A stretch of 64,000 bases of DNA from sequence record PX068455.1. One strand, written 5' to 3'. Positions within the stretch are counted from its first letter, which is position 1; each line of letters starts with the position of its first letter. This document shows, one piece after another, positions 1,552-60,828 of this stretch. The translations under genes and the position numbers were made by a program. The DNA comes from a phage. Under the pieces are notes generated by a model. That model made no database searches. It was not told the origin of the DNA and saw only the letters and a list, made by a program, of their open reading frames with translations.

Positions 1552-1971
1552 TTATAATGATTCGTATATTTCAAAAATCCGATTTGCCAGGTCGTTACGG
1601 TAGCGGAATTTTTCCTCACGTTTGATCATAAGATCTTTATAGCCGTACTCTTTAAGCACTTCATTAACTTTATGGCGGCATACTTTCATATTATCCTGCG
1701 CGTCACCAATAAATCTGTTGCTATGGTGCATGGCTTTAATTTCTTCTTCCAGGACCAGGGCAACTATGCGGACCGGATCAAGCTGATAGGCGGTAACATC
1801 CATGCGGCATTGTAAACGGCTTTTTACGTCTGCCACCGGATATACTGCAACCTCTTCCCCGTCAACATTGACAATAATTAGTTTACCATCGATTTCGAAT
1901 CCTTTCGCCGCCGGACCGTGACAAAAAGCGTTATCAAAGCTATATGCCGGATTATTAGATTTAATGTTCAT
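1552..1971 (-). CDS. hypothetical protein (139 aa)
   Basis: ORF track; last gene of co-directional minus array, followed by terminator. Confidence 0.5.
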   Translation of the reverse strand: MNIKSNNPAYSFDNAFCHGPAAKGFEIDGKLIIVNVDGEEVAVYPVADVKSRLQCRMDVTAYQLDPVRIVALVLEEEIKAMHHSNRFIGDAQDNMKVCRHKVNEVLKEYGYKDLMIKREEKFRYRNDLANRIFEIYESL

Positions 1972-2115
1972 GGTGTTTTTACCTCTTAGTTAATTTTCTT
2001 ACAACTTCCCTTCAAAAAAGAATATAGCAAAACTGCCGATCCCTGTCAACCAGGGATAGCATAATTTTTATGTGATCAAGGGGCTTTATTGCCCCTGACC
2101 ATGTAACTTGTTGTA

Positions 2116-2379
2116 TTATTTGTTGCTCATCCAGTTTTCCCAAGCTGCCTGATAATCTGCCTCACTACGGCGGATCTCTTCTTGCTCTTCAAGGCGGATC
2201 TCTTCTTCCAGGTACCCCAAGATGTCAGCCTTTTTAGTCTGGCGTAGCATCCAGTCATCTTTTTTGCGAGTGAAGATCTTATAAGCTTTCTCGCAAACCT
2301 CTTTTTTGCTACCTTTCTGGACTTCAAGAACACGATAAGCCATATATTGAACTAATTTGAGCTGATCAAGACGTTTCAT
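2116..2379 (-). CDS. hypothetical protein (87 aa)
   Basis: ORF track; upstream TTGAAT-N17-TAAGAT promoter, GGGCC-aaaa-GGCCC leader hairpin, SD AAAGAGG. Confidence 0.5.
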   Translation of the reverse strand: MKRLDQLKLVQYMAYRVLEVQKGSKKEVCEKAYKIFTRKKDDWMLRQTKKADILGYLEEEIRLEEQEEIRRSEADYQAAWENWMSNK

Positions 2380-2439
2380 GATGTTTACCTCTTTGTGCGG
2401 TTCTGATTAGTGGGCCTTTTGGCCCGTGTCATTATCTTA

Positions 2440-2712
2440 TTACTTATGGCGGCAGAATTCAAGCGTTTTTAATTGATAATCTTCCTCAGCCTGGAGTACG
2501 ACCGCCTCGATCATTTCGTTGGCATTGTTAAAGCCATAACCTTTAGCGAACTCATCCGCGCCACCTTCGTGATCATGTTCTGCGTTCATCGCTTCCACAA
2601 AATGGAATTCCAAATTGTTGAGGTAGGGGCTTGATGTTCCGTCCTCTTTTTCGATGAGATCCCAAATAGCATTAAAACGTGATTCGACTTCTTGATTAAT
2701 CCAGCTTGACAT
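2440..2712 (-). CDS. hypothetical acidic protein (90 aa)
   Basis: ORF track; preceded by promoter, hairpin and SD AGGAGAGAGG. Confidence 0.5.
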   Translation of the reverse strand: MSSWINQEVESRFNAIWDLIEKEDGTSSPYLNNLEFHFVEAMNAEHDHEGGADEFAKGYGFNNANEMIEAVVLQAEEDYQLKTLEFCRHK

Positions 2713-2766
2713 AGTGTTTTCCTCTCTCCTGGTTGTTGTGTGGGCACTTTTGCCCCTTCAAGATAA

Positions 2767-2795
2767 ATGTTACCTCACCCCATGGCAGATGTCAA
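2767..2795 (-). promoter_or_regulatory. sigma70-like promoter TTGACA-N17-TAACAT
   Basis: Hexamers read on minus strand upstream of the 2712 start; coordinates approximate. Confidence 0.45.
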
Positions 2796-2826
2796 CGGTT
2801 TTTATAGTTCTTATATGACAGGCAGG

Positions 2827-2843
2827 CCCGGTGATTGTCTCCC
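2827..2843 (-). repeat. Third copy of core motif GGGAGACAAyCACCGGG (minus orientation)
   Basis: Plus strand reads cccggtgattgtctccc, the reverse complement of cores at 12321 and 12455; intergenic. Confidence 0.5.
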
Positions 2844-2929
2844 CCTGTTCCCAAGTGCCGCCCGTTTAATAAGAATAGCAAAAGGGGCCGAACAAGTCAA
2901 CCCCAAAATCAGTACCAAAACACTTTTAT

Positions 2930-3241
2930 TTATACGGTCCGATCATTGGCCTTTGTCCAGGACCTGGCGATCCGTTTCCCGGTCACCTGGAACGGAGGCT
3001 GCATTGTGTGTAATGAGTCCAGAGTAAGGGAGGACCGTTTACGGCGTATCTTCAGGATCGCTAACGTATTGTCCATCTCACGGCCAGGTCCTGGGCGGTA
3101 TGGTGTGCCTCCAGCGTTAAGGTTGATGATCTCATGTATTGAGATCCGGCGTTGTTTTGCTTCCGCATCTTTGAAGATAGCCAGCGGAGGCGCTATGCGT
3201 TGCCGATACCAATCTAAAACGGTTGGCGTAATAGCGATCAT
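2930..3241 (-). CDS. hypothetical protein (103 aa)
   Basis: ORF track; start overlaps upstream stop (ATGA coupling). Confidence 0.4.
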   Translation of the reverse strand: MIAITPTVLDWYRQRIAPPLAIFKDAEAKQRRISIHEIINLNAGGTPYRPGPGREMDNTLAILKIRRKRSSLTLDSLHTMQPPFQVTGKRIARSWTKANDRTV

Positions 3242-3429
3242 ATTTTACCCCCTATGTAGTCCGGTCGGTTTTTCTCTGTCATACGCTTAAGCAATTCTTG
3301 CATGTTGCTTATGGCTTGTAGTGTATCCTCTTCAAGGGATGAATCAAGATAATCAGGATCATTCTTCACCTTGCAATGATTATGATAACGCAGTACCGCC
3401 AGTACTTTTTTAACTTCTTCCGCTGTCAT
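3238..3429 (-). CDS. hypothetical protein (63 aa)
   Basis: ORF track; co-directional, coupled to downstream ORF. Confidence 0.45.
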   Translation of the reverse strand: MTAEEVKKVLAVLRYHNHCKVKNDPDYLDSSLEEDTLQAISNMQELLKRMTEKNRPDYIGGKI

Positions 3430-3437
3430 TATCGCGC

Positions 3438-3572
3438 CTAAAACAATGAGTTAATATATAACACCAGATCGCTGACTACCAGGACAACATTAATCAGCAC
3501 ATACCTAACCATAAAGGGAAAGATCGCCAACATTGCCGCCACGATCCCCATGGTAATAATTATCTTTCTCAT
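3438..3572 (-). CDS. small hydrophobic protein (44 aa), not in ORF track
   Basis: ATG 2 nt after upstream stop; translation MRKIIITMGIVAAMLAIFPFMVRYVLINVVLVVSDLVLYINSLF read manually; no clear SD. Confidence 0.3.
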   Translation of the reverse strand: MRKIIITMGIVAAMLAIFPFMVRYVLINVVLVVSDLVLYINSLF

Positions 3573-3574
3573 GG

Positions 3575-3859
3575 TTAACGGTTCACGTAAGTTTTCCCGT
3601 TCACGGTTATGGGCAGATCCTCCAGGTCTGGATCTTCCTTAAGGTCGCGAGCAAGCTCACCGCACCGGATACCCTCGAATCCGTAGTACTCTGTTGTGCC
3701 GTCCTTAAAAGTTTTAGCGGCAAGGCATAAGCGATAAGTAACCCCGATTTGATTGACGGCATGAATATCCGTTAGATTAACCTCTTTTGCCAGCTCTTTA
3801 GCCATTACAGGCGCATTAAGTCCAACAACCAGGGTAACCACTGCGATCATCTTTTTCAT
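3575..3859 (-). CDS. secreted protein with N-terminal signal peptide (94 aa)
   Basis: MKKMIAVVTLVVGLNAPVMA signal-peptide-like N-terminus. Confidence 0.5.
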   Translation of the reverse strand: MKKMIAVVTLVVGLNAPVMAKELAKEVNLTDIHAVNQIGVTYRLCLAAKTFKDGTTEYYGFEGIRCGELARDLKEDPDLEDLPITVNGKTYVNR

Positions 3860-6410: not shown

Positions 6411-6433
6411 TGATTATTTTAACAGGGTTTAAA

Positions 6434-6478
6434 TTTACTTTATTGATGGCCCTGGAGTCAAGGCCATCTAAAAATAAA
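6434..6478 (-). promoter_or_regulatory. Conserved 45-bp promoter/operator module, copy 1
   Basis: Identical 45-mer in 3 copies; minus strand reads TTGACT within inverted repeat GATGGCC..GGCCATC, then TAAATT 18 bp downstream. Confidence 0.5.
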
Positions 6479-6480
6479 TT

Positions 6481-6681
6481 TTACAGATCTACAATCTCTT
6501 TAATTCGTTTTACTGCTGCCTCAGCGCCTTGAGGGTAGAAATTATGATAACCAATCACGCGGGTAATACTGATCGCCGCTTGGTGGTCCTCGTAGTCGCC
6601 TTTGAATATTTCTTGACCATCAACCAGCACAGCAATTTTTTCTTCTTTTTTGAAGTTAATAACGCGGATATTGTTGCTCAT
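6481..6681 (-). CDS. hypothetical protein (66 aa)
   Basis: ORF track. Confidence 0.45.
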   Translation of the reverse strand: MSNNIRVINFKKEEKIAVLVDGQEIFKGDYEDHQAAISITRVIGYHNFYPQGAEAAVKRIKEIVDL

Positions 6682-6946: not shown

Positions 6947-7055
6947 CGTCTCCCCCTTCCCTCCTGCTAGCAGTTACGTGGTTTGCAATGGCCCCCAGTA
7001 GTCCGATCACGACACACATCGCAAGAAAAATTATCTCTCCCGTTGTTCGATCCAT
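6930..7055 (-). CDS. small membrane peptide (41 aa), internal start of ORF 6930..7115
   Basis: Internal ATG with SD GAGAGG; hydrophobic IIFLAMCVVIGLLGAI; longer form would start at GTG without SD. Confidence 0.25.
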   Translation of the reverse strand: MDRTTGEIIFLAMCVVIGLLGAIANHVTASRREGGDDDNQG

Positions 7056-7165
7056 TGTTATAAAACCTCTCAAGATCAGGCCTAAAAGTAAATCTTTCGT
7101 TATTGAATCCGTCACGCCAGGCGGCTGGCTTCAAATCTTCACTAAATGGATTAATTAACGTGGCA

Positions 7166-7537
7166 TTATTTAAACGGTTGGCCCACATATTTTCTATTCC
7201 TCTCAAATAAGCGATCCGCCTCAGTTAAACAAATCTCATGGGCGTGATCTCTGGTTTTAGCTTCATCGAAAACCTGTTGTGCAAGGCTGCAACGTAGGGA
7301 GACTGGGAGATCACTATAATAGGCGTTGACAAACGTTTGAGCGTCGTACAGGTCTGAAAATACTTTACCCTTTCTATTATTCCCCTTGTCAACAATTGCA
7401 AGGATAACCAATACAATAGTTGCAACCACCCCCAGGAAAATAGATATAATAAACCATAAAAAGGCGGATCTCCCCATCTTGCCAGCGATCCAGGCGTTAA
7501 ACAAGGCAACCAATATAGCCAAAATAATAAATTCCAT
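7166..7537 (-). CDS. membrane protein (123 aa)
   Basis: ORF 7166..7570 trimmed to ATG (residue 12) with SD AAGAGG; two hydrophobic helices (MEFIILAILVALFNAWIAG, FLWFIISIFLGVVATIVLVILAIV). Confidence 0.5.
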   Translation of the reverse strand: MEFIILAILVALFNAWIAGKMGRSAFLWFIISIFLGVVATIVLVILAIVDKGNNRKGKVFSDLYDAQTFVNAYYSDLPVSLRCSLAQQVFDEAKTRDHAHEICLTEADRLFERNRKYVGQPFK

Positions 7538-7601
7538 TCTATGTACCTCTTTTACAGTTCTGATCAACAATAAGGCGGCAAATATGCCGCCTGTTACCTG
7601 A

Positions 7602-9789: not shown

Positions 9790-9865
9790 GTGTACTTTCT
9801 CCTTTCATGGTGTTAATAAATTATCTTTATAGATGGCCCTGCAACCAGGACCACCGAAAAAATAA

Positions 9866-10111
9866 CTATTTCACAATGCCTACAAAACAGATCCCGCCTT
9901 CACCTATGTAAGCAATATCGGTAACTTTATAATTTGTCAAGATCTGTTTATTTAGTTCATTAATAAAATCGGTCATTGCGTTGGTGTAGTTGTCTTCCAT
10001 ATCTAAGGCATAATCCCAGGCGTAAGCCTTTTTACGTCCGAAGCCTTTTACCATGATACGGGCGCTTTTGGTGTTGGTGGGCGCATAATATTTGGTGATT
10101 AGTGCTGCCAT
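9866..10111 (-). CDS. hypothetical protein (81 aa)
   Basis: ORF track; preceded by 45-bp module copy 2 and SD GAGGAG. Confidence 0.5.
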   Translation of the reverse strand: MAALITKYYAPTNTKSARIMVKGFGRKKAYAWDYALDMEDNYTNAMTDFINELNKQILTNYKVTDIAYIGEGGICFVGIVK

Positions 10112-10151
10112 GGTTTTAACTCCTCATTAGTTCAGTGTTAACAGTGTAAAG

Positions 10152-10196
10152 TTTACTTTATTGATGGCCCTGGAGTCAAGGCCATCTAAAAATAAA
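10152..10196 (-). promoter_or_regulatory. Conserved 45-bp promoter/operator module, copy 2
   Basis: Identical to copies at 6434 and 10773; TTGACT-N18-TAAACT on minus strand. Confidence 0.5.
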
Positions 10197-10197
10197 T

Positions 10198-10539
10198 TTA
10201 CTCGTTTTCTTCCAGCTCTGAAAGCTCTTCTTTCACTTCTTCGAGCTCTGTCTGCAATTCTTGGTACTCTTCATCGTCCTCAATATCCAGGCTGTCGATG
10301 TAGTCGCTAAATCCGCAGCGGTAAGCGATAGGATCTAGCTCCTTGAGGATACGCGACGGAAGAAAAGAAATGTTTCCGATCATAATTTCGCCGTAGATCT
10401 CGTCTAACCATTCATCATAGTTTTCGTCGTACTTGTCCTCGTCGATTTCAAAGTTATCGATCTTGTTCTCAAGGTCTGCGATCTGTTTTTTCAGCGCGGC
10501 GATCTGCATAGCTTTTTCTGCGGCGGTCATAGTAGTCAT
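10198..10539 (-). CDS. highly acidic coiled-coil protein (113 aa), possible DNA mimic
   Basis: Very high Asp/Glu content (EEVKEELSELEENE tail); own promoter and leader hairpin. Confidence 0.5.
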   Translation of the reverse strand: MTTMTAAEKAMQIAALKKQIADLENKIDNFEIDEDKYDENYDEWLDEIYGEIMIGNISFLPSRILKELDPIAYRCGFSDYIDSLDIEDDEEYQELQTELEEVKEELSELEENE

Positions 10540-10738: not shown

Positions 10739-10772
10739 CTTAAAGCCCCCTTTTTCGCTTAGTTGAGACTAG

Positions 10773-10817
10773 TTTACTTTATTGATGGCCCTGGAGTCAA
10801 GGCCATCTAAAAATAAA
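10773..10817 (-). promoter_or_regulatory. Conserved 45-bp promoter/operator module, copy 3
   Basis: Identical 45-mer; TTGACT within inverted repeat GATGGCC/GGCCATC. Confidence 0.5.
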
Positions 10818-10818
10818 C

Positions 10819-11223
10819 TTAGTAAGTTTTCAGTACTTTACCGTCCAACCTGTCAAGCTGGATCTCGATAGCTGCAGAAAACCTATTGTACACCACGTCG
10901 CCCATAGAATCCAACCAATCTATGACGTTATACACCTGCTCTTTGTTCTTACAGGTCCGGATCCGTTTCATGATGTAAGCCGGATCAATATTGGTACTCT
11001 CGTCGGTGTTCCCCTGTACCTGGTTTGCCGTATTAGTTACATCTTTAATGGCCTTTACCACCACCTGGAAGGGCTTTAAGGTACCTTTTGCGTTCATCTC
11101 ACGCGCTTTTGCGGCGCGGTTGTTATATGTTACACAACGGCGGCAAATGTTGATCAAATGCATGTCAATAATTTTTTCATCGTTTGCCAGTTCATTCATG
11201 ATGCGGCGTACGTTCTTATTCAT
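10819..11223 (-). CDS. hypothetical protein (134 aa)
   Basis: ORF 10819..11322 trimmed to ATG at residue 34; the in-frame upstream part contains promoter and leader hairpin. Confidence 0.5.
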   Translation of the reverse strand: MNKNVRRIMNELANDEKIIDMHLINICRRCVTYNNRAAKAREMNAKGTLKPFQVVVKAIKDVTNTANQVQGNTDESTNIDPAYIMKRIRTCKNKEQVYNVIDWLDSMGDVVYNRFSAAIEIQLDRLDGKVLKTY

Positions 11224-53178: not shown

Positions 53179-53445
53179 TTAAGCTTTTTGCTCTTCGTTT
53201 TTAACGTGGTCAGGGTGCTGGCAACCCCACCGGAGCGAGATGAATTTGCTAATAAGCTGGGGGCAGGCTACTGAAGGTGCATATATCCACGCATACCATT
53301 CAGGAAGCGTATCATTATACCCCATATGAATAAACACCCCAGTCATCACCGCCATGCCTATGTTCGACCATAGCTTAGATTGGGATACTTTCGTAGGGTC
53401 ATCAGATGCCGCAACCAGTCCCCATAAAAACTGAGTTAGTTTCAT
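53179..53445 (-). CDS. small membrane protein, holin-like (88 aa)
   Basis: Two to three hydrophobic segments with charged C-terminus HVKNEEQKA; function tentative. Confidence 0.3.
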   Translation of the reverse strand: MKLTQFLWGLVAASDDPTKVSQSKLWSNIGMAVMTGVFIHMGYNDTLPEWYAWIYAPSVACPQLISKFISLRWGCQHPDHVKNEEQKA

Positions 53446-53456
53446 TTACCCTCTTT

Positions 53457-54503
53457 TTAAGCATAAGATATAGTGATCCATTGACCGTTTACAAGTTTTT
53501 GGATAGCACCTGTCCAGTAATCACCTTGATAAGGGTGTTTATAAGCGTAGTTACCAGAGCACATCACATGTCCAGGGTAGACTCTTGACTCTCTGTAGGT
53601 GGTTTTGAAACGGTTTGCTATCCTTACATCGTCAACCCCTCTACTGGGCATAGGGACAGTAAGGTTACCACTACCGTCTGCGCTGTTACCGTTTACCCTG
53701 CGGACCACGTTTCTTCCACCAACGGTTGCATATTGGCCTCTAACGGTTTCATCGTTACAATCAACTCTTCCACCTATTTGAGCGCTTCCGCAGGATTGTT
53801 GTCCGTTAACAGTGGCTCTTGGTATCGTGACCGCATTGGCATTTGCAGAGGAACTTTTTGCATCGTTGCATTCAAGATTTCCTTGGATAGCCAGTCTTGC
53901 ACGGTTGGCAGTTATAGCATTGAGCTTCATAGCCGAAAACACAGGCTGCCCACCAGAAGGTTGAAATCTCCAACGGAACCCGTCTATTTGGTGAGAAGGA
54001 TCATCAAGGTCTGTGCCGTCAGCACCACCGATGTTGTCCATAATCCAGAAATCCATCGTCGTCTTGTCTGGCGTTATGGTGGTATATATTGCCGCACTGT
54101 CTGTTGACGCAGATGCAAACTCGATTCTTTGGAGACCTAAAGTTTGAGTCTGAGTCATTATGTCTCCAGACTTGTCAACATATAGATCGTCCATTTCTTC
54201 AGGTGAGTATACATTGAGAACTTGACGTGCAGCAGCTTTGTCTGGAACGTCTGCTAGATTATTAGTGACCCTTAAGAATCTATTATCCCATCCTGGGACA
54301 ACATCTTCTGTTAAATGCTTCAACCACGCAGAAAGCATGTGAAGTTCAAAGTTAACAACTTCACATGCCATTCTTTGTGTCATATCCCAACCTTTCAATC
54401 TCTCTTCTTTTTTTGGTTGAGACTTATTCAACTCTCCCGTATTTTCAAGCACAACATCCTGATTGGCCCAAATATCAAGAGGGATAACTGGTTTAGTCAT
54501 CAC
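53457..54503 (-). CDS. tail fibre protein, paralogue 1 (348 aa)
   Basis: Shares N-terminal pattern (PLDIWANQD) and C-terminal KLVNGQWITISYA with 55515..56555. Confidence 0.6.
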   Translation of the reverse strand: MMTKPVIPLDIWANQDVVLENTGELNKSQPKKEERLKGWDMTQRMACEVVNFELHMLSAWLKHLTEDVVPGWDNRFLRVTNNLADVPDKAAARQVLNVYSPEEMDDLYVDKSGDIMTQTQTLGLQRIEFASASTDSAAIYTTITPDKTTMDFWIMDNIGGADGTDLDDPSHQIDGFRWRFQPSGGQPVFSAMKLNAITANRARLAIQGNLECNDAKSSSANANAVTIPRATVNGQQSCGSAQIGGRVDCNDETVRGQYATVGGRNVVRRVNGNSADGSGNLTVPMPSRGVDDVRIANRFKTTYRESRVYPGHVMCSGNYAYKHPYQGDYWTGAIQKLVNGQWITISYA

Positions 54504-54589
54504 GTTCTCCTGAGAAAATTCCTTAGGACTATTTTAACACTTTAGAGAACAAAATGCAAGAACGGAGTCCTTTCCGTTCTGACCTTTGT

Positions 54590-54904
54590 TTACCTTTTAC
54601 TATGCTCTACGAGCATGTGCAAAATCTTTTGTACATCAGCTCGGATGCCGGAGACATCTGTCCTGACATCCTGCTTAAGGTCGTTAATATCGGCCTCTAG
54701 CTTGCTTAACCGGGTCTCGATAACGGAATCAAGTCTATCTTTTGTAACCATACTGTTTTTCACTAAGATGAGGTCTTTCTCCAGTTCATCCAACCTCTGG
54801 GAAATGCCTTTCCATTTGGTGTGCCACTGGTTGAAAGCCCATACACAGATCGGGACAACGGTACCCATACAGATACCGTACAATGCCGCCAAATCCAACT
54901 CCAC
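54590..54904 (-). CDS. membrane protein with coiled-coil C-terminus (104 aa; spanin- or holin-like)
   Basis: N-terminal TM LAALYGICMGTVVPICVWAF then charged helix. Confidence 0.35.
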   Translation of the reverse strand: MELDLAALYGICMGTVVPICVWAFNQWHTKWKGISQRLDELEKDLILVKNSMVTKDRLDSVIETRLSKLEADINDLKQDVRTDVSGIRADVQKILHMLVEHSKR

Positions 54905-54915
54905 AACACCTCCTC

Positions 54916-55500
54916 TTAGAGGGTAGGTCGCTCCGGGAAGAAAATGTCAGGGGCTTTAGATGTATCTATTTCAAGAAGTTTTACCCTGTACATTTTCAAA
55001 TCTCTGATGTTACGTTTCTGGTCATCAGTAAGATCATATTCAAGGTCAATCATGTCTTGATAGGCACCAATTCTAGCAGTAGCCCAAGCAAGTTCTGTCT
55101 CTATGACACCCTCTGCCTGTTGAACAAAGAATTCATTGTCTGTGACAAATTCATCACCAACTAAACGCAAAGCGTCGTGGTGAAGCATAATGTTTTCTGG
55201 TACCTCTTCTTTTTTGGCGATAACCACACGAAGACCTGGAGCAGGCCATAAGGCATCAGGTTCTTCTGTAGATGTCTTAAGAATTCCCTTCTCGTCAACA
55301 AGTAGGAAGATACAACCTGGATTTTCTTGTCGCAATGTTCGTGACTGCACATACCAATCGCCATCATCATTACGTAAAAAATACCCAGTGTATGCGGTGT
55401 AATCCTCAACCTCTTGAGGGGTCAGCTCCTTGGTTTCCTTGTTGGCGTGGTATTCGCCAGATCCCGGTTGGTAAAGTTTAAACTCTTGAAGTATTTTCAT
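54916..55500 (-). CDS. tail fibre assembly chaperone (Caudo_TAP-like; 194 aa)
   Basis: C-terminal signature LKMYRVKLLEIDTSKAPDIFFPERP; directly downstream of a fibre gene. Confidence 0.7.
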   Translation of the reverse strand: MKILQEFKLYQPGSGEYHANKETKELTPQEVEDYTAYTGYFLRNDDGDWYVQSRTLRQENPGCIFLLVDEKGILKTSTEEPDALWPAPGLRVVIAKKEEVPENIMLHHDALRLVGDEFVTDNEFFVQQAEGVIETELAWATARIGAYQDMIDLEYDLTDDQKRNIRDLKMYRVKLLEIDTSKAPDIFFPERPTL

Positions 55501-55514
55501 GCTAGTCCTCCGAT

Positions 55515-56555
55515 CTATGCATAATTAACAGTGATCCATTGACCGTTTACAAGTTTTTGTAAAGGTCCTGCCCAGTAAGTTGAACCACGCATCTCTTTTT
55601 TGTCACCGAAATGCCAGCCTGTGACAACGTAGCCGTTGCGGATTGGAGATTCAGAAACGCCGTCCACAAGTCTTGCACCGATTCTGATGTCTTGCACACC
55701 TGTCTGCGGGATAGTGATCGTTACATCACCGTTACCGTTAGCCGTCACTCCGTTCACAGAGCGAACCACATTTCTGTTACCGACAACACAGTGCTGGCTT
55801 CTTACAACCATACTGTCACAACTTGCACCACCATTAACATATACTGACCCAGCCGTCAATTGACTAGCCACATTGCAGTTGGTGAATGTTGCTGTATTAC
55901 TGATAGTAAGGTTATTACACCTCATGTTATCGACAACTTCAACATTGCCTACCACTTTCAACAGCGCACGGTTAGCCGTGATCGCGTTAAGGTACATCAA
56001 AGTGAACTCTGGATTAATATCCGGCTGAGTTGGCTGGAATCTCCAACGAAACGCATCTACTGTAGATGTACCGCCATCATCAAACGACCCGGTATTATCA
56101 CTTAACCCAAAGTCGAGAGTTGTCTTATCTGGGCCAATAGTCGTCTCTATCCAAGCCTTATCTGTCTCGGCAGCTTTAAAGTTGATACGTTGCAAACCCA
56201 AGGGGCCTGTCATTGTATCACCTGTAACTTTTACATACCTGGCGTCTGCCTCTTCCTTGGTAATAATCCCAAGGTTTCTACGGGCAACAGGGATGTTCAA
56301 AAGATCACTCAAGTTATTATCACGTACCAGATAACGGCCTTCTTGAGCGGGGATCTGCTCGTCAGCAATATATTTTGCCCAAGTTCCGAGCATATTGAAA
56401 ATATAGTTAAGTTCTTCACATGAGGGCTTTTGACCAAGATCCCAACCTTTTCTCCACAAATCATCAATCGGGCGTAGCCTGTTCTGTCTGTGGGTGTTAG
56501 GCAGAACCTGATCCTCCTCTGCCCAAATCTCTAATGGAAAACTAGGTTTTGACAT
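55515..56555 (-). CDS. tail fibre protein, paralogue 2 (346 aa)
   Basis: N-terminal PLEIWAEED; C-terminal KLVNGQWITVNYA; followed by Tfa-like chaperone. Confidence 0.6.
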   Translation of the reverse strand: MSKPSFPLEIWAEEDQVLPNTHRQNRLRPIDDLWRKGWDLGQKPSCEELNYIFNMLGTWAKYIADEQIPAQEGRYLVRDNNLSDLLNIPVARRNLGIITKEEADARYVKVTGDTMTGPLGLQRINFKAAETDKAWIETTIGPDKTTLDFGLSDNTGSFDDGGTSTVDAFRWRFQPTQPDINPEFTLMYLNAITANRALLKVVGNVEVVDNMRCNNLTISNTATFTNCNVASQLTAGSVYVNGGASCDSMVVRSQHCVVGNRNVVRSVNGVTANGNGDVTITIPQTGVQDIRIGARLVDGVSESPIRNGYVVTGWHFGDKKEMRGSTYWAGPLQKLVNGQWITVNYA

Positions 56556-56567
56556 TTTATCTCCTGA

Positions 56568-58640
56568 TTATGAGAAGTCTGGCGGGACAACATCTTCTAC
56601 ATACCCTTTCAGAGCAACCTGCCCCATATGAAGCACGGTAGAATCTCTAGCGGTAACAGTGATGCTGTCAGACATTACTTGCGGGTATGCCCACACATAC
56701 TGTTTTACCTCAGGGTATCTATACTCTATAGTTGCCATGTTTCCGCAAATACATCTCCATAAAAATTCTTGGTAATTCCTAGTTGGGTCATAGCCATATA
56801 CCGGAGCAAGCTCTTTACTAGGAACGAACCCTGCAAGGTATTGTATTTCAGACGGTTGCCAACCTAACCTAACGATAGGTATGTTTACAGACTCTTTTGC
56901 CTTTTCAATACCTCCCTGCATCACCCAATCGTAGCACTCGGTGCAGAAGAAATCAAGAGCACCTGCTTCCTTTTTATATTGGTCAGCAAGGTTCAGCTTT
57001 TGTGTAAGCTCGGTTTCCATAATGGTTGGGAAAAACAGCAAAGCTGTCATCTGAGCTGATGCAGCGTGTGCCTTTACTGCCTTTGAAATAGCCGCAATAC
57101 GAGCGCCAAGCTTACCACGACAAAATGCCACATACTTGTCGTAAACACCGCCAGTTTTAGGATCGTCAATAGTCCCAATATCTAATGCATACTCACCTGT
57201 CTCATCATAAAACGCCTGCTTTGTAGGGTAATCATAAATACAAGGCCTACGAGTATCGGTATTGTACCACCACCACGGTTCACCAACCTGCATAATCACT
57301 GGCAGGTTGTTTCTCATAGCGGCTGATGCAAAATTCTTAAATACTGCAGTAAGGAAATTCATACCCTCTTCAATGGTTGGAGATAGGAGGTAGCTACAAG
57401 GTGTATACCCTGTTTTAGCGTAGTTATCGTTCCAGTCTCTTTGGGTCCATTCCAACGGGCAGGCATCGCTGAAAAGCTCAAAACTTACAGATTGCATAAC
57501 GTCGAAGTTATGTCGTTTGGCATTGTACATAAAATCATCATGCCATTTATAAGCTGCAGCGTTTAGCGCTCCTGTTCTGTTTATAGACCATTGGGTTCCG
57601 GACCATGTGTAGTCATAATAATGACTCATACCAACATAATGGTTTATGGTTCCGGTATATCCCAGACGCTTGATATTGTTCAACACCCTTAAAGGAGAGA
57701 CGTTCCACATATCGTCATATGCGGTGCAGATCCCAACGTCGTGCTCTCTCACCTGAATATTATTAAGTTGCATCATTTTCCAGCCTGTGTCTGGCTGAAG
57801 CAAATCTAGGCGCAACTCACACTCTACATTTTCCGTTCTCGGGTCTGTGCTATTACTTACCCAGTCTTTAGGCATGAGTGGTATTAAAATCCTTCTCACC
57901 TGCCGAGGATCAACACCCATCATGTTGTTGTTCTGGTCCATCCCGACGCAGTCCTCGAAATCAATATGAATTTCTGCAACATTCTTATCCTCTGAGATGC
58001 TGACAGCATATTGAGCTAAAGGAACATAGATGATTGTGCCATCAACAAGGTCTACAGTCATAATCATCTTTTCAGGAGTGGAGAAGTTGCTGGCGTTGGT
58101 TATTGACATTCTGAACCAAAGTTTGGTGTTTCTCATCTCATAGTGATCATCAAACCCAATACCGAAATGGTCATACTTGTCAACTGTTTCCCAAATGCAT
58201 CCAGCCATACCCCCATATGTTCTTGACACTAAACGGTTAATACAACAGTTGTTATCTGCAACAATACAGGTACTTTCAGTCTGCTGAGTAGTTGTAACCC
58301 AATATCTTGGGTGGAACATTCTCTCCTCGACAGTATCCCAAGATATCCTGTCAAGATTCTCATCTGAAACTATTGTACATTTCGCCCTTTGTGTCCCGAT
58401 CATCACCCCTTGAGATTTTGATGAAAACTCCATAAAGAAGCTTCTTGGCAACCTGTTGGGTAATTTGTCAACAATTTCCACCGGAATCTCAATACTGGTT
58501 GCCCCGACTGGGATAGTTACATCGCCCTCAACATGATCATAATCCCTACCAGGAACGGCAGTATCCTGAACTGTGCGGTAATGAAACTGCGCAGCCATTG
58601 TAGAGTAATCACGGTAAGGTTTAAAAACAGCTGTTGCCAT
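56568..58640 (-). CDS. tail/baseplate-associated protein (690 aa)
   Basis: ORF track; position between baseplate and fibre genes. Confidence 0.5.
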   Translation of the reverse strand: MATAVFKPYRDYSTMAAQFHYRTVQDTAVPGRDYDHVEGDVTIPVGATSIEIPVEIVDKLPNRLPRSFFMEFSSKSQGVMIGTQRAKCTIVSDENLDRISWDTVEERMFHPRYWVTTTQQTESTCIVADNNCCINRLVSRTYGGMAGCIWETVDKYDHFGIGFDDHYEMRNTKLWFRMSITNASNFSTPEKMIMTVDLVDGTIIYVPLAQYAVSISEDKNVAEIHIDFEDCVGMDQNNNMMGVDPRQVRRILIPLMPKDWVSNSTDPRTENVECELRLDLLQPDTGWKMMQLNNIQVREHDVGICTAYDDMWNVSPLRVLNNIKRLGYTGTINHYVGMSHYYDYTWSGTQWSINRTGALNAAAYKWHDDFMYNAKRHNFDVMQSVSFELFSDACPLEWTQRDWNDNYAKTGYTPCSYLLSPTIEEGMNFLTAVFKNFASAAMRNNLPVIMQVGEPWWWYNTDTRRPCIYDYPTKQAFYDETGEYALDIGTIDDPKTGGVYDKYVAFCRGKLGARIAAISKAVKAHAASAQMTALLFFPTIMETELTQKLNLADQYKKEAGALDFFCTECYDWVMQGGIEKAKESVNIPIVRLGWQPSEIQYLAGFVPSKELAPVYGYDPTRNYQEFLWRCICGNMATIEYRYPEVKQYVWAYPQVMSDSITVTARDSTVLHMGQVALKGYVEDVVPPDFS

Positions 58641-59326
58641 TAACCCTCCTGTCTAGTTGCGTTTACTGTAATACTTTCACAATAAATGGTTGTGGTGTCC
58701 CAATCAGGTCTTACGTCAGGAACATACAGCAAAGTAGCCAGCCCACCAACTCCGAATTGGTTTTCTTCCCACACTGATCCGAAGCCAAGAGCTGTATGGT
58801 CCCCTTCAAAACCAAAAGCTTGCCCTTGCGATTCTGTAAGACGCAAATGACAAGGCAATGGTAGCATGTCTAAGATCTGATCGATAGACTGCAATATGTC
58901 AAAGCAAGTTTTTCTAATATTTATGTCAAATCTGAAGTTGTCTCCTTTCCACGTATCGAAATTGTCCCTTCCGAACAATTGTCGCAAGGTGGAGATGACA
59001 TCTTCGCGAGTCCCACCCCTTGATGCTGCGGCCTGCTGAATAATCAGCGTGGCACGAAAATCAGCATCTGAAAGTCCATTCCTAAGAATACCAAGTTGAT
59101 TACCAACTTCGTCAAGGTATCTTCCGCTAGCATTGTTAAGCAATCTTCCTTCAGCCAAACCTACCAGCATCTTATCAACATCCTCCAACCTTTTAAGGTA
59201 CACGGTTAAGAATGTGACCAAATTAACCTTCTCAGCCAGAAAATCTCCAGGCAGGTAGTCAAGACCTCCCTGAACAAAATCTGGCAGAGTGTGGATGTGG
59301 TTAACATCCGACTTAATCTCTGCCAT
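58640..59326 (-). CDS. baseplate component (228 aa)
   Basis: ORF track; ATGA coupling to upstream gene. Confidence 0.45.
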   Translation of the reverse strand: MAEIKSDVNHIHTLPDFVQGGLDYLPGDFLAEKVNLVTFLTVYLKRLEDVDKMLVGLAEGRLLNNASGRYLDEVGNQLGILRNGLSDADFRATLIIQQAAASRGGTREDVISTLRQLFGRDNFDTWKGDNFRFDINIRKTCFDILQSIDQILDMLPLPCHLRLTESQGQAFGFEGDHTALGFGSVWEENQFGVGGLATLLYVPDVRPDWDTTTIYCESITVNATRQEG

Positions 59327-59337
59327 ATCTCGCCGCC

Positions 59338-60828
59338 TTAAATAGTTTGTTGGAAAGTTATATTACTTTCGTCGAGGTCAAACACCTCGGTCATGTTCGC
59401 AACAATATCGTTTGTAGTGTAAGCTTCATCAGAAGCTCCTACTGGTTTAACTTGAATTACCAGTCTATTAAATCTGCCTATTGACACAGCAGCAGATGCA
59501 GCACCGACCAATTGGATATTATACAACGTATCTGCAACATCCAGTCCGTTAACAACCTGTAAAAGAGCCTCTACAATGGCATCTTTTTCGGTTGTGGAAA
59601 GCGCAGCACCAGAGTAGGTAATTCTTACATCCAGGCGGTAGGTATTTGCCTTGGAGTAATAAATTCTTTCAGTTTGACCGTCAGATGTAGTGACATCGTA
59701 GAAAATATTACCATAAGTCCTGTTCGTACAGGCTATAGTTTGGTAAAGTGCTTGGCAAATGTCCTCCGTTGCACCACCAAACACAACCACTTGGAACTTG
59801 TAAGGAGGTATACCTTTAGCATCAGTTTTATCGGTGTTGTTGGAGAACACTCTCACTTTCTCAACACCTTTCACCTCGCTTACAGCGCTAAGGATTGCAG
59901 GACGGGTAGCCTTAGATGTTAACTGTTTTGTGCTGGAAGCTCTTAAGCGATACTCTGAGTCTTTCTCAACATCTCTGCCCTCATTGAATCTTTCTCGGTT
60001 GGTAAGTTTGATAAATCCACTAGGGGTAGGTGACATTGTTGTCACGGTTTCTGCCTCTCTTGACAGCTCACCAGCCTCGTTAGCGATAACATCCAGGGTG
60101 ATAGTTCTTTCTCCTACAATCGGGGATACTCTGAAATCTACCCTGCTATTAAGTCCAACTTGATCAAGATTCGAATTGTACCCTATCCACAACGTTCCTG
60201 TCAACATATCGATCTGAATCAAATCGTCGTTCAACAGGGTTGTATTATCGACAATGAACTGCTTAATCTCTCCGTAAAAGCTTGGCAGATCAGAGGAGTC
60301 CAGAGCCTTATCTGTTAAAACCAGACTTTTTGTTTTGATACTTCCGTCTGTCTGGTTGGTAATTTGAAAGTTGTATTTCCCAATTCTTAGGTCTGGAGCG
60401 TTTATTCTGTGAGCAATAAGATTTCCAGCCACCTGCACATCGTTGCTAAGAACAAAGTTGCCACTGTCCAGCGTATAAGTTTTGGAATCATAAATCATAT
60501 TGTACGGCACAGTTGTGTTGATTGTCAACTGGCAGGTACCTGATGATTTAGAACGGCCTCTTCGGTAAATACCCTGCCTTCCAAGAAGCTCATCCAGGTA
60601 AATACCTTCTGCCCCATACAGCGTCTGTGATGCGTATACAGATGCTGCCATAAGAATAAGTTGATATTCTCGCTCGTTGAAAATAGTGGTCAGCTTATCT
60701 GCAACTGAGTTACTCTGTACGTTGAAGTTTTCGCCAAAAGCACGGATCAGGCTTTGCTTAGTTTCAACGATTAGGTCATTTAGGGTTGGTATAACGAAAC
60801 CAGCCTCTGTCAATCCATACTTAGCCAC
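59338..60828 (-). CDS. baseplate J-like protein (496 aa)
   Basis: GTG start after SD GGAGGAG; N-terminus MAKYGLTEAGFVIPTLNDL recalled as baseplate-J-like. Confidence 0.5.
   Translation of the reverse strand: MAKYGLTEAGFVIPTLNDLIVETKQSLIRAFGENFNVQSNSVADKLTTIFNEREYQLILMAASVYASQTLYGAEGIYLDELLGRQGIYRRGRSKSSGTCQLTINTTVPYNMIYDSKTYTLDSGNFVLSNDVQVAGNLIAHRINAPDLRIGKYNFQITNQTDGSIKTKSLVLTDKALDSSDLPSFYGEIKQFIVDNTTLLNDDLIQIDMLTGTLWIGYNSNLDQVGLNSRVDFRVSPIVGERTITLDVIANEAGELSREAETVTTMSPTPSGFIKLTNRERFNEGRDVEKDSEYRLRASSTKQLTSKATRPAILSAVSEVKGVEKVRVFSNNTDKTDAKGIPPYKFQVVVFGGATEDICQALYQTIACTNRTYGNIFYDVTTSDGQTERIYYSKANTYRLDVRITYSGAALSTTEKDAIVEALLQVVNGLDVADTLYNIQLVGAASAAVSIGRFNRLVIQVKPVGASDEAYTTNDIVANMTEVFDLDESNITFQQTI

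Follow-up and report, generated by a model that had tools for sequence, protein, structure and literature searches.

Two short tail fibre paralogues in an rV5-like Vequintavirus carry an identical 30-nt tract at their 3' ends that appears to evolve in concert

The DNA analysed here is a 64,000-nucleotide stretch of a phage genome (PX068455.1), called the window below, and the region of interest within it encodes two short tail fibres (A and B), a single chaperone and several small proteins. In DNA database comparisons this region was 100% identical to that of Escherichia phage ECP2303 and 94–99% identical to 117 Vequintavirus records; its identity to rV5 was 98%, with the gene order gp33-gp32-gp31-gp30-gp29-gp28 in common. 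DNA similarity thus identifies the locus as the short-tail-fibre module of an rV5-like Vequintavirus, and relatives carry the BASEL annotation 'short tail fiber x2 + tail fiber chaperone'. Its features are:

53179..53445, minus strand: 88-aa small membrane protein (rV5 gp29; phrog_1322 'membrane protein', E 2.7e-32)
53457-54503, minus strand: mechanical ORF of short tail fibre A, orthologue of rV5 gp30 and a lineage-specific paralogue
53457..54500, minus strand: likely true extent of fibre A, from an ATG at 54500 (347 aa, as in rV5 gp30)
53472..53501, minus strand: copy of the identical tract in fibre A, codons for QKLVNGQWIT (model strands 327-337 and 340-343)
54530..54539, minus strand: late-promoter-like motif TGTTAAAATA ahead of fibre A, from a motif search
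54559..54580, minus strand: terminator-like hairpin from a consensus scan, in the 86-nt spacer upstream of fibre A
54590..54904, minus strand: 104-aa protein (rV5 gp31; phrog_5345, E 1.8e-48)
54916..55500, minus strand: Tfa chaperone (rV5 gp32, Mu gpU-like), 194 aa, directly downstream of fibre B
55515..56555, minus strand: short tail fibre B, 346 aa, orthologue of rV5 gp33 and of phi92 gp147 (fibre III), in which an N-terminal wedge-attachment domain is followed by a shaft and then by a C-terminal tip of the Mu gpS type
55530..55559, minus strand: copy of the identical tract in fibre B, codons for Q333-T342, QKLVNGQWIT (model strands 326-336 and 339-342)

For the start of fibre A, an AGGAGA motif lies 6 nt upstream of the ATG at 54500, whereas its spacing to the GTG is just 3 nt. 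The two fibre proteins are 43% identical over their full length (BLASTP, E 1e-95) and their genes 52% identical overall, and each matches phrog_4465 along the entire profile (positions 1-342 of 342; E 2.7e-166 for A and 1.8e-171 for B), which bears out the preliminary description of two paralogous fibre genes that have diverged outside a shared 3' end. It had also proposed related N-termini, and here phmmer searches of PDB chains matched B residues 1-108 to residues 1-111 of the phiTE short tail fibre (9cuy_c, E 1.4e-19) and A residues 1-83 to residues 1-83 of the same chain (E 1.9e-8), so that both align with the baseplate-wedge attachment domain assigned to phiTE residues 3-92 (PMC11972413). 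At the other end, B residues 286-343 matched residues 440-501 of Mu gpS (5yvq_A; phmmer, E 1.7e-6), and 5yvq_A was the sole significant Foldseek match to the B model (E 3.4e-7); the monomer AlphaFold models of A and B have pLDDT values of 58-61 and were used solely for tip secondary structure and this match. Fibre A by itself gave no direct Mu gpS match in the PDB sequence search; it aligns with B through the tip and retains the terminal motif, while a tip loop has diverged (CSGNYAYKHPYQG in A versus TGWHFGDKKEMRG in B). Both fibres belong to the virion in rV5, where gp30, gp32 and gp33 were found by mass spectrometry (Kropinski et al. 2013, Virol J 10:76), the presence of both having been a check proposed earlier. 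The occurrence of gp32 there lends indirect support to a chaperone that would be required for trimer folding and would bind the fibre tip.

Upstream of fibre B lie a Baseplate_J gene (59338-60828) and a 228-aa baseplate gene, with a 690-aa TIM-barrel gene intervening before B, and single-fibre relatives have the fibre B gene at the same position. Fibre A is found three genes beyond B, behind its own terminator-like hairpin, the stem of which is retained through compensatory changes in FV3 and the L020 lineage; the TAAAATA upstream of A is conserved in FV3, L018 and L020, and an rV5 late motif, TggTAaAAtA, has been described (Kropinski et al. 2013, Virol J 10:76). The Tfa protein matches Pfam Caudo_TAP (PF02413, E 8.4e-12, residues 121-192) and phrog_136 (E 2e-36), and its sequence search against the PDB gave spurious matches only. 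Its N-domain carries an extra segment of 12-18 residues, seen only in two-fibre lineages. A tblastn search of the window with the Tfa protein identified no second copy, in keeping with the earlier claim that only fibre B is followed by a chaperone gene.

The 104-aa protein has a putative N-terminal transmembrane segment and a putative heptad-rich C-terminal coiled coil (read by eye and from weak Pfam coiled-coil-type matches); its homologue in Av-05 is 33% identical (E 2e-17), and in single-fibre relatives the gene also follows Tfa. The 88-aa ORF downstream of fibre A had been called holin-like. While it is a small membrane protein, it matched no holin family, searches of Pfam (E <= 10) and NCBIfam (E <= 1) both being negative, and there is no adjoining endolysin gene. 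Homologues occupy the same place in Av-05, L018 and L020 (51%, 74% and 90% identity, respectively), and the gene belongs to an ancestral cluster of small membrane proteins. In Av-05 and GEC_vB_MG the order is fibre-Tfa-104-157-88-581, and a tblastn search identified neither the 157-aa membrane-protein gene nor a remnant of it in the window. As judged from gene order, fibre A occupies the slot of this 157-aa gene.

Some of these properties have counterparts in known systems. The tip of fibre B is homologous to that of Mu gpS, including the terminal motif PVQKNINGTWYNV, and as with Mu gpS and gpU/TfaMu (PDB 5YVQ) a Caudo_TAP gene lies directly downstream of B; unlike the Mu arrangement, the gene downstream of fibre A encodes the 88-aa membrane protein rather than a Tfa. 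The Tfa resembles TfaMu in having a variable N-terminal and a conserved C-terminal domain, as described in PMC9608196. Mu has both U and U', whereas here one chaperone accompanies two fibres, the N-terminus and shaft are of the Vequintavirinae/phiTE type, and the two specificities would reside in two complete genes in direct orientation, an invertible G segment, an S/S' alternative and an invertase all being absent. With phi92 fibre III (gp147) and the phiTE short tail fibre (9CUY) the homology lies in the N-terminal wedge-attachment domain, and the phi92 gene follows wedge genes and, as here, is followed by Tfa and a 104-aa-like gene. In contrast, only one fibre copy occurs in phi92-like phages, Seunavirus and Avunavirus, and the phiTE fibre is a 554-aa protein with Ig-like domains. 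This type of short fibre has been proposed to mediate irreversible adsorption to LPS. Neither A nor B matched T4 gp12 in phmmer searches of all PDB chains at E cut-offs of 1 to 10, and a remote HHpred similarity to 1PDI has been reported (Kropinski et al. 2013, Virol J 10:76); we regard T4 gp12 as, at most, a functional analogue.

The most unusual property of the two genes is the identity of their 3' ends. This had been given as 28 bp; the identity is real, and the exact run is 30 nt (plus strand AGTGATCCATTGACCGTTTACAAGTTTTTG). The copies lie in direct orientation at the extreme 3' ends of the genes, 2058 nt from each other, and when the comparison is extended to 63 nt identity is 84%, versus 52% for the whole genes. 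No third copy was identified in the window with up to 3 mismatches allowed (0 copies in 100 shuffles), and in no record does the tract occur in more than two places. At identical degenerate amino-acid positions the two genes use the same codon in 45 of 134 cases outside the tract (34%) versus nine of nine inside, with p = 5e-5 from this empirical rate and 2e-4 from the codon usage of both genes; the DNA identity of the tract is not due to chance (p about 1e-4). The encoded peptide is the terminal beta-hairpin of the Mu gpS-type tip domain, with an Asn-Gly turn in the low-confidence models, and it is found family-wide, including in one-fibre phages that encode it with other codons (Av-05, PaulScherrer, GEC_vB_MG, BP63 and, as cited above, Mu).

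We then compared the tract across related phages, the sister lineages having been found by protein search. Within the rV5 clade the two copies match at 30/30 positions in roughly three quarters of genomes and at 29/30 in most others, these fractions being estimates from allele counts that leave other mismatches uncaptured, and in the FV3 clade they match at 26-28/30; the identity thus holds up in close relatives, as the preliminary description had asked. Pattern scans of IMG/VR and of metagenome contigs returned 4 loci each. Where gene conversion makes paralogues evolve in concert, they have lineage-specific substitutions and polymorphisms in common. In the sister lineage L020-L023 the tract of A matches that of B at 29/30 positions and in 8/9 codons, and both paralogues carry the same four changes relative to the window (CTT>CTG, GTA>GTC, AAC>AAT and CAA>CAG). 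Between window and L020 orthologues 4-5 of the 9 tract codons are the same, which is the background level. Classifying site patterns between the window and L020 gave 4 concerted, 0 orthologous and 0 other sites in the tract, compared with 22, 204 and 25 over the whole alignment (18, 204 and 25 outside the tract); that is, 4/4 informative sites are concerted inside the tract versus 18/247 outside. The shared substitutions have p of about 3e-5 by site patterns and of about 1e-3 under a parallel-substitution null, the latter a back-of-envelope estimate. On the evidence of these shared changes the tract undergoes concerted evolution, and recurrent short-patch gene conversion, which had been suggested earlier for the 3' identity and which these substitutions support, is most likely the best account of it. 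As two independent events, one per lineage, suffice for the data, conversion need not be ongoing.

The proposed conversion, of so short a patch between genes of 52% identity, is read from sequence comparison. Within the genus an AAC/AAT polymorphism is present at the same codon in both paralogues, in all four combinations (about 106-111 genomes), and this sharing speaks for concerted evolution; covariation between A and B at this codon looked suggestive in six genomes, and over about 106-111 records the two were independent (2 double-C observed versus 2.3 expected), so covariation was discarded as evidence.

The more distant two-fibre lineage L018 bears on several ways in which the tract could be explained. 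There the A and B proteins end in 21 identical residues and A has a B-type tip, the peptide is retained, and yet only 2/9 tract codons are the same, so that DNA identity is absent. As the L018 tips match in protein despite saturated synonymous sites, selection alone explains the peptide. One could go further and suppose that selection explains the window as well, its codons being identical by chance or codon preference and conversion playing no part. The family-wide conservation of the peptide, the L018 case and the independence of A and B in their AAC/AAT alleles are all in line with such a coincidence, but it has to contend with nine of nine codons against the 34% background (p = 5e-5 to 2e-4) and with L020, which independently has 8/9 codons the same and four synonymous changes common to both paralogues; moreover, codons vary between lineages, so fixed codon preference fails as an explanation. 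We consider coincidence unlikely and already disfavoured. The preliminary description had alternatively raised a DNA-level recombination or assembly signal, and a functional nucleic-acid element of some kind (a target through which a trans-acting RNA or protein would regulate the fibres jointly, or a site of programmed or frequent recombination or module exchange) would fit two direct-repeat copies 2058 nt apart that stay identical within a genome despite drift between lineages, since a co-evolving trans factor would give the same pattern. The searches argue against it: RNA structure at the two 3' ends was dissimilar and not significant (z -0.44 and -1.73), the tract had no Rfam match, antisense or internal promoter-like matches were at shuffled expectation, and the search for a third copy was equally null. 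From lineage to lineage, synonymous change in the tract proceeds at an ordinary rate. About a quarter of rV5-clade genomes (an estimate) and all FV3-clade genomes examined have 1-4 mismatches, among them a Leu-to-Phe change. L018 has the same two-fibre layout and the peptide without the DNA identity, and the bases themselves are therefore probably not a signal. Nor does the arrangement correspond to the Mu/P1 invertible switches (Gin/gix and Cin/cix): the repeats are direct, unlike the inverted gix and cix sites, Pfam scans identified no recombinase domain in nine neighbouring products, and a crossover between the repeats would remove the Tfa gene and most of fibre A. Taken together, we regard a functional element as very improbable.

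It could also be that the tract marks a crossover junction from module exchange, the tip or 3' end of one paralogue having been imported from another phage. Distal fibre genes of T-even phages reportedly recombine at conserved motifs, and the present case resembles this in that short conserved coding motifs would be the places of DNA exchange; it differs in that the exchange would be between paralogues of one genome, over ~30 nt, and that specificity is not swapped. Consistent with import, the C-terminal tip is mobile as a module: the last 58 residues of B are ~58% identical to those of Rosemountvirus fibres with an unrelated body and their own Tfa, many tip classes occur on one N-terminus within the family, and the A fibre of L018 has a B-type tip. 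A single crossover should nonetheless leave one-sided similarity, and here nucleotide identity immediately upstream of the tract is 38% and other residues and genes follow downstream; the four substitutions common to both L020 paralogues would also go unexplained, and they favour a patch over a junction. An imported 3' end is thus, in our judgement, improbable.

The account we prefer, and consider probable as a whole, is that of an rV5-like module with an ancestral fibre B and a paralogue A, in which protein constraint on the hairpin combines with short-patch conversion of the tract. Fibre B would be the ancestral fibre, a homologue of phi92 fibre III (gp147) with a tip homologous to Mu gpS; its N-terminal ~100 residues would dock on the baseplate wedge, and its C-terminal ~60-residue tip would be of the type folded by a Tfa (Mu gpU-type) chaperone. 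Fibre A would be an old, lineage-specific paralogue that took the place of the 157-aa membrane-protein gene and is preceded by a terminator-like hairpin and a late-promoter-like motif of its own. The terminal beta-hairpin P/A-[IL]-Q-K-L-V-N-G-Q-W-I-T would be retained in both fibres because the fold needs it, and the single chaperone, if it serves both, may need it also. Because the hairpin is the only long identical run of amino acids, the tract would be the sole place where the two DNAs are similar enough to pair, and short-patch gene conversion may have homogenised it repeatedly. Given protein constraint together with concerted evolution, the 30-nt identity would be a footprint and not itself a signal. 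We infer that one Tfa serves both A and B and that the hairpin contributes to its recognition of them, and the two tips presumably bind different features of the LPS core. A more specific version, which we think rather unlikely, is that the hairpin and the extra Tfa N-domain segment form a shared 'chaperone handle' by which one Tfa folds two tips, with selection favouring homogenisation of the tract, which would then be no neutral by-product; if this were true, new tips could be engineered onto a given chaperone with the hairpin as a portable tag.

It had been suggested that the two fibres are a dual receptor-binding system for host-range expansion. This is plausible and the idea is already in print, two LPS chemotypes having been proposed (Kropinski et al. 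2013, Virol J 10:76); it has also been reported that alleles hardly vary and that there is one LPS-core requirement (Maffei et al. 2021, PLoS Biol 19:e3001424). Indeed, papers of 2013 and 2021 had already covered the phage, its paralogous fibres, the lone chaperone, the occurrence of both fibres in virions and the dual-receptor idea, and to that extent the discovery value is small. What is new is the 30-nt identity at the fibre 3' ends and its concerted evolution, and full-text literature searches identified no paper on the tract, on its concerted evolution or on the replaced 157-aa gene. For the rV5-like phages this adds a clean case of apparent concerted evolution limited to ~30 nt between otherwise saturated paralogues, a fibre gene that seems to have replaced a membrane-protein gene and has terminator-like and late-promoter-like signals of its own, and a chaperone insertion that correlates with the possession of two fibres. 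It also cautions that short exact repeats within fibre genes need not be signals, and it may serve as a guide for fibre and chaperone engineering in rV5-like therapeutic phages.

Every gene between 51 and 61 kb of the window lies on the minus strand, and the locus is 100% identical to that of Escherichia phage ECP2303/ECP2309 and 94–99% identical to that of 117 Vequintavirus (rV5-like) records. Sixteen MG0656xx records entitled 'Campylobacter phage', host Campylobacter jejuni, are ~98% identical to the E. coli rV5-like locus, and their host labels look doubtful. In transcription order the locus reads:

59338-60828, minus strand: Baseplate_J wedge protein, first in transcription order
58640-59326, minus strand: 228-aa baseplate protein, after the Baseplate_J gene
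56568-58640, minus strand: 690-aa protein with Calx-beta, NCTSP_N and 'non-contractile tail sheath' TIM-barrel domains, after the wedge genes and before fibre B
55515-56555, minus strand: fibre B (orthologue of rV5 gp33), 346 aa, after the 690-aa gene
54916-55500, minus strand: Caudo_TAP chaperone (Tfa), 194 aa, after B
54590-54904, minus strand: 104-aa protein, hydrophobic at the N-terminus and rich in heptads towards the C-terminus, after Tfa
between the 104-aa gene and A, minus strand: 86-nt spacer
53457-54500, minus strand: fibre A (orthologue of rV5 gp30), 347 aa counted from the ATG, after the spacer
53179-53445, minus strand: 88-aa membrane protein, after A
downstream of the 88-aa gene, minus strand: 581-aa fibre, then 1878-aa fibre

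The slot of the 690-aa gene holds a gene of the same size in the single-fibre relative Av-05, while in PaulScherrer (phi92-like) and GEC_vB_MG (Seunavirus) the fibre gene comes directly after the wedge genes with no gene of the 690-aa type between. The 88-aa ORF, earlier described as holin-like, matched no holin family and is a member of the ancestral gene cluster; its homologue in the uncultured two-fibre lineage L018 (3265-3618) has 117 aa, with a charged, low-complexity C-terminal extension.

The preliminary description was right to call A and B paralogous: each aligns over its full length with phrog_4465 'tail fiber protein', and they are 43% identical as proteins (E 1e-95) and 52% as DNA. 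Their N-termini match the phiTE short tail fibre (PDB 9CUY; E 1.4e-19 for B and 1.9e-8 for A), residues 3-92 of which make up its joint with the baseplate wedge (PMC11972413). The last ~60 residues of B match the Mu gpS fibre tip (5YVQ residues 440-501, E 1.7e-6), a match that takes in Mu PVQKNINGTWYNV, and the sole significant Foldseek match of the B model, itself of low confidence (pLDDT 61), was to the Mu fibre-chaperone complex (E 3.4e-7). In the predicted structures of both fibres the last beta-hairpin, with an Asn-Gly turn, is formed by QKLVNGQWIT. This peptide is a family signature, found with other codons in the single-fibre relatives Av-05 (PLQYLVNGQWVTV), PaulScherrer (PLQYYINGSWITV), GEC_vB_MG (PIQKYINGGWYTI) and Rosemountvirus BP63 (PLQYYINGTWINV), in all four of which a homologous Tfa gene follows the fibre gene. 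The BP63 fibre gp44 (1852-3738 of its locus) has only its last ~58 residues in common with B (~58% identity). The Tfa homologue encoded after it has 26% identity to the Tfa of the window; the Mu-type tip and the chaperone seem to move as a single module.

The DNA encoding QKLVNGQWIT is identical in A and B over 30 nt (53472-53501 and 55530-55559), not the 28 bp previously reported, and the window holds these two copies and no third. Three readings of this identity were tested: a nucleotide-level signal, chance and gene conversion. Chance was excluded because A and B use the same codon at 9/9 identical degenerate residues in the tract versus 45/134 elsewhere (p = 5e-5 to 2e-4); the 3' identity is real. 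The proposal that the tract is a conserved DNA signal is not supported: the folds of the A and B 3' ends are unremarkable and dissimilar to each other, an Rfam search of the tract region gave no match, and orthologues in the window and in L020, of a second uncultured two-fibre lineage, share 4–5 of 9 tract codons against a background of ~0.4, an ordinary synonymous rate. Genomes of the FV3 clade, distinct from the rV5 clade, carry 2–4 tract mismatches, a Leu to Phe change among them, and A and B of L018 share the codon at only 2/9 positions, even though the two proteins end in 21 identical residues.

The sequence comparisons support gene conversion, as had been suggested. In L020-L023 the tract of A and B reads CAA AAA CTG GTC AAT GGT CAG TGG ATC AC(T/G), 29/30 identical between the paralogues, and the two copies share four synonymous positions at which they differ from the window. 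A four-sequence site-pattern analysis scored 204 orthology, 22 concerted and 25 third-pattern sites over the whole alignment, versus 4, all of them concerted, in the 30-nt tract (0 orthology, 0 third; p ~3e-5, or ~1e-3 by a back-of-envelope estimate under a more conservative parallel-substitution null). Within the genus an AAC/AAT polymorphism occurs at the same codon in both paralogues in all four combinations; an early impression of covariation was dropped, as double-C genomes number 2 versus 2.3 expected and the alleles are not associated. The A and B flanks are diverged on both sides, and each paralogue keeps its own residues from lineage to lineage (A GAI...ITISYA, B GPL...ITVNYA), which makes the event a short patch and not a crossover junction.

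The two-fibre layout is common to L020-L023 (protein identity to the window 78% for A and 87% for B) and L018 (47% and 73%). L020-L023 are Logan/ENA contigs of 67–126 kb from a Vequintavirus-like lineage, with locus DNA ~70–75% identical to the window; no counterpart was found among 50,697 phage records, the lineage being known from assemblies only, and one copy carries the annotation E. coli hypothetical protein (BAU67_001867). The order in Av-05 (Avunavirus) and GEC_vB_MG is fibre, Tfa, 104 aa, 157 aa, 88 aa, 581-aa fibre, where the 157-aa gene (6949-7422 and 7087-7560 of the respective loci) encodes a multi-pass membrane protein that has left no trace in the window; A fills its slot exactly (53457-54589), with the conserved 104-aa gene on one side and the conserved 88-aa gene on the other. 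The spacer ahead of A contains a hairpin of terminator type (54559-54580); in FV3 and the L020 lineage compensatory changes preserve its stem. The spacer also has a TGTTAAAATA motif (54530-54539) that resembles the rV5 late-promoter consensus and is also conserved in L018 and L020. Elsewhere in the window four 51-nt direct repeats (6431-6481, 9818-9868, 10149-10199 and 10770-10820; 73–100% identity) contain the hairpin GATGGCCCTGG...CAAGGCCATC and have the look of an early-region intergenic element, a terminator or a promoter, present in several copies. No tRNA gene was found by ARAGORN in 1-64000.

The two fibre genes are accompanied by one chaperone gene, as originally noted. The variable N-terminal domain of the chaperone, its fibre-binding domain (PMC9608196), carries a 12–18-residue insertion (window residues ~13-30) in all three two-fibre lineages (window/FV3, L020 and L018), absent from the four single-fibre phages examined (Av-05, GEC_vB_MG, PaulScherrer and BP63), which is a correlation only.

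In the most likely mechanism, selection on the tip fold, and presumably recognition by the single chaperone, holds the ten residues identical, leaving A and B DNA similar enough there to pair and, from time to time, to be homogenised by recombination; conversion that ran further would replace residues specific to each paralogue and be selected against. The A and B tips of L018, 84% identical over 61 residues with lineage-specific residues in common, show this tendency on a larger scale at the protein level.

Kropinski et al. 2013 described rV5 gp30 and gp33 as short-fibre-like proteins 42.3% identical to each other, and published work places both fibres, not only one, in virions. In a 2026 cryo-EM study the sole phi92 homologue, gp147, is fibre III, located on the wedge and proposed to be the irreversible-adsorption fibre. 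That the fibres are paralogous with a single chaperone, and the idea of two receptors, had thus been published already; the concerted 30-nt tract adds a minor detail that is new. For rV5-like phages Maffei et al. reported almost no allelic variation and an LPS-core requirement common to the phages. The least variable part of A and B, within both the Vequintavirus and L020 lineages, is the last ~45 residues, which fits two conserved yet distinct receptor sites.
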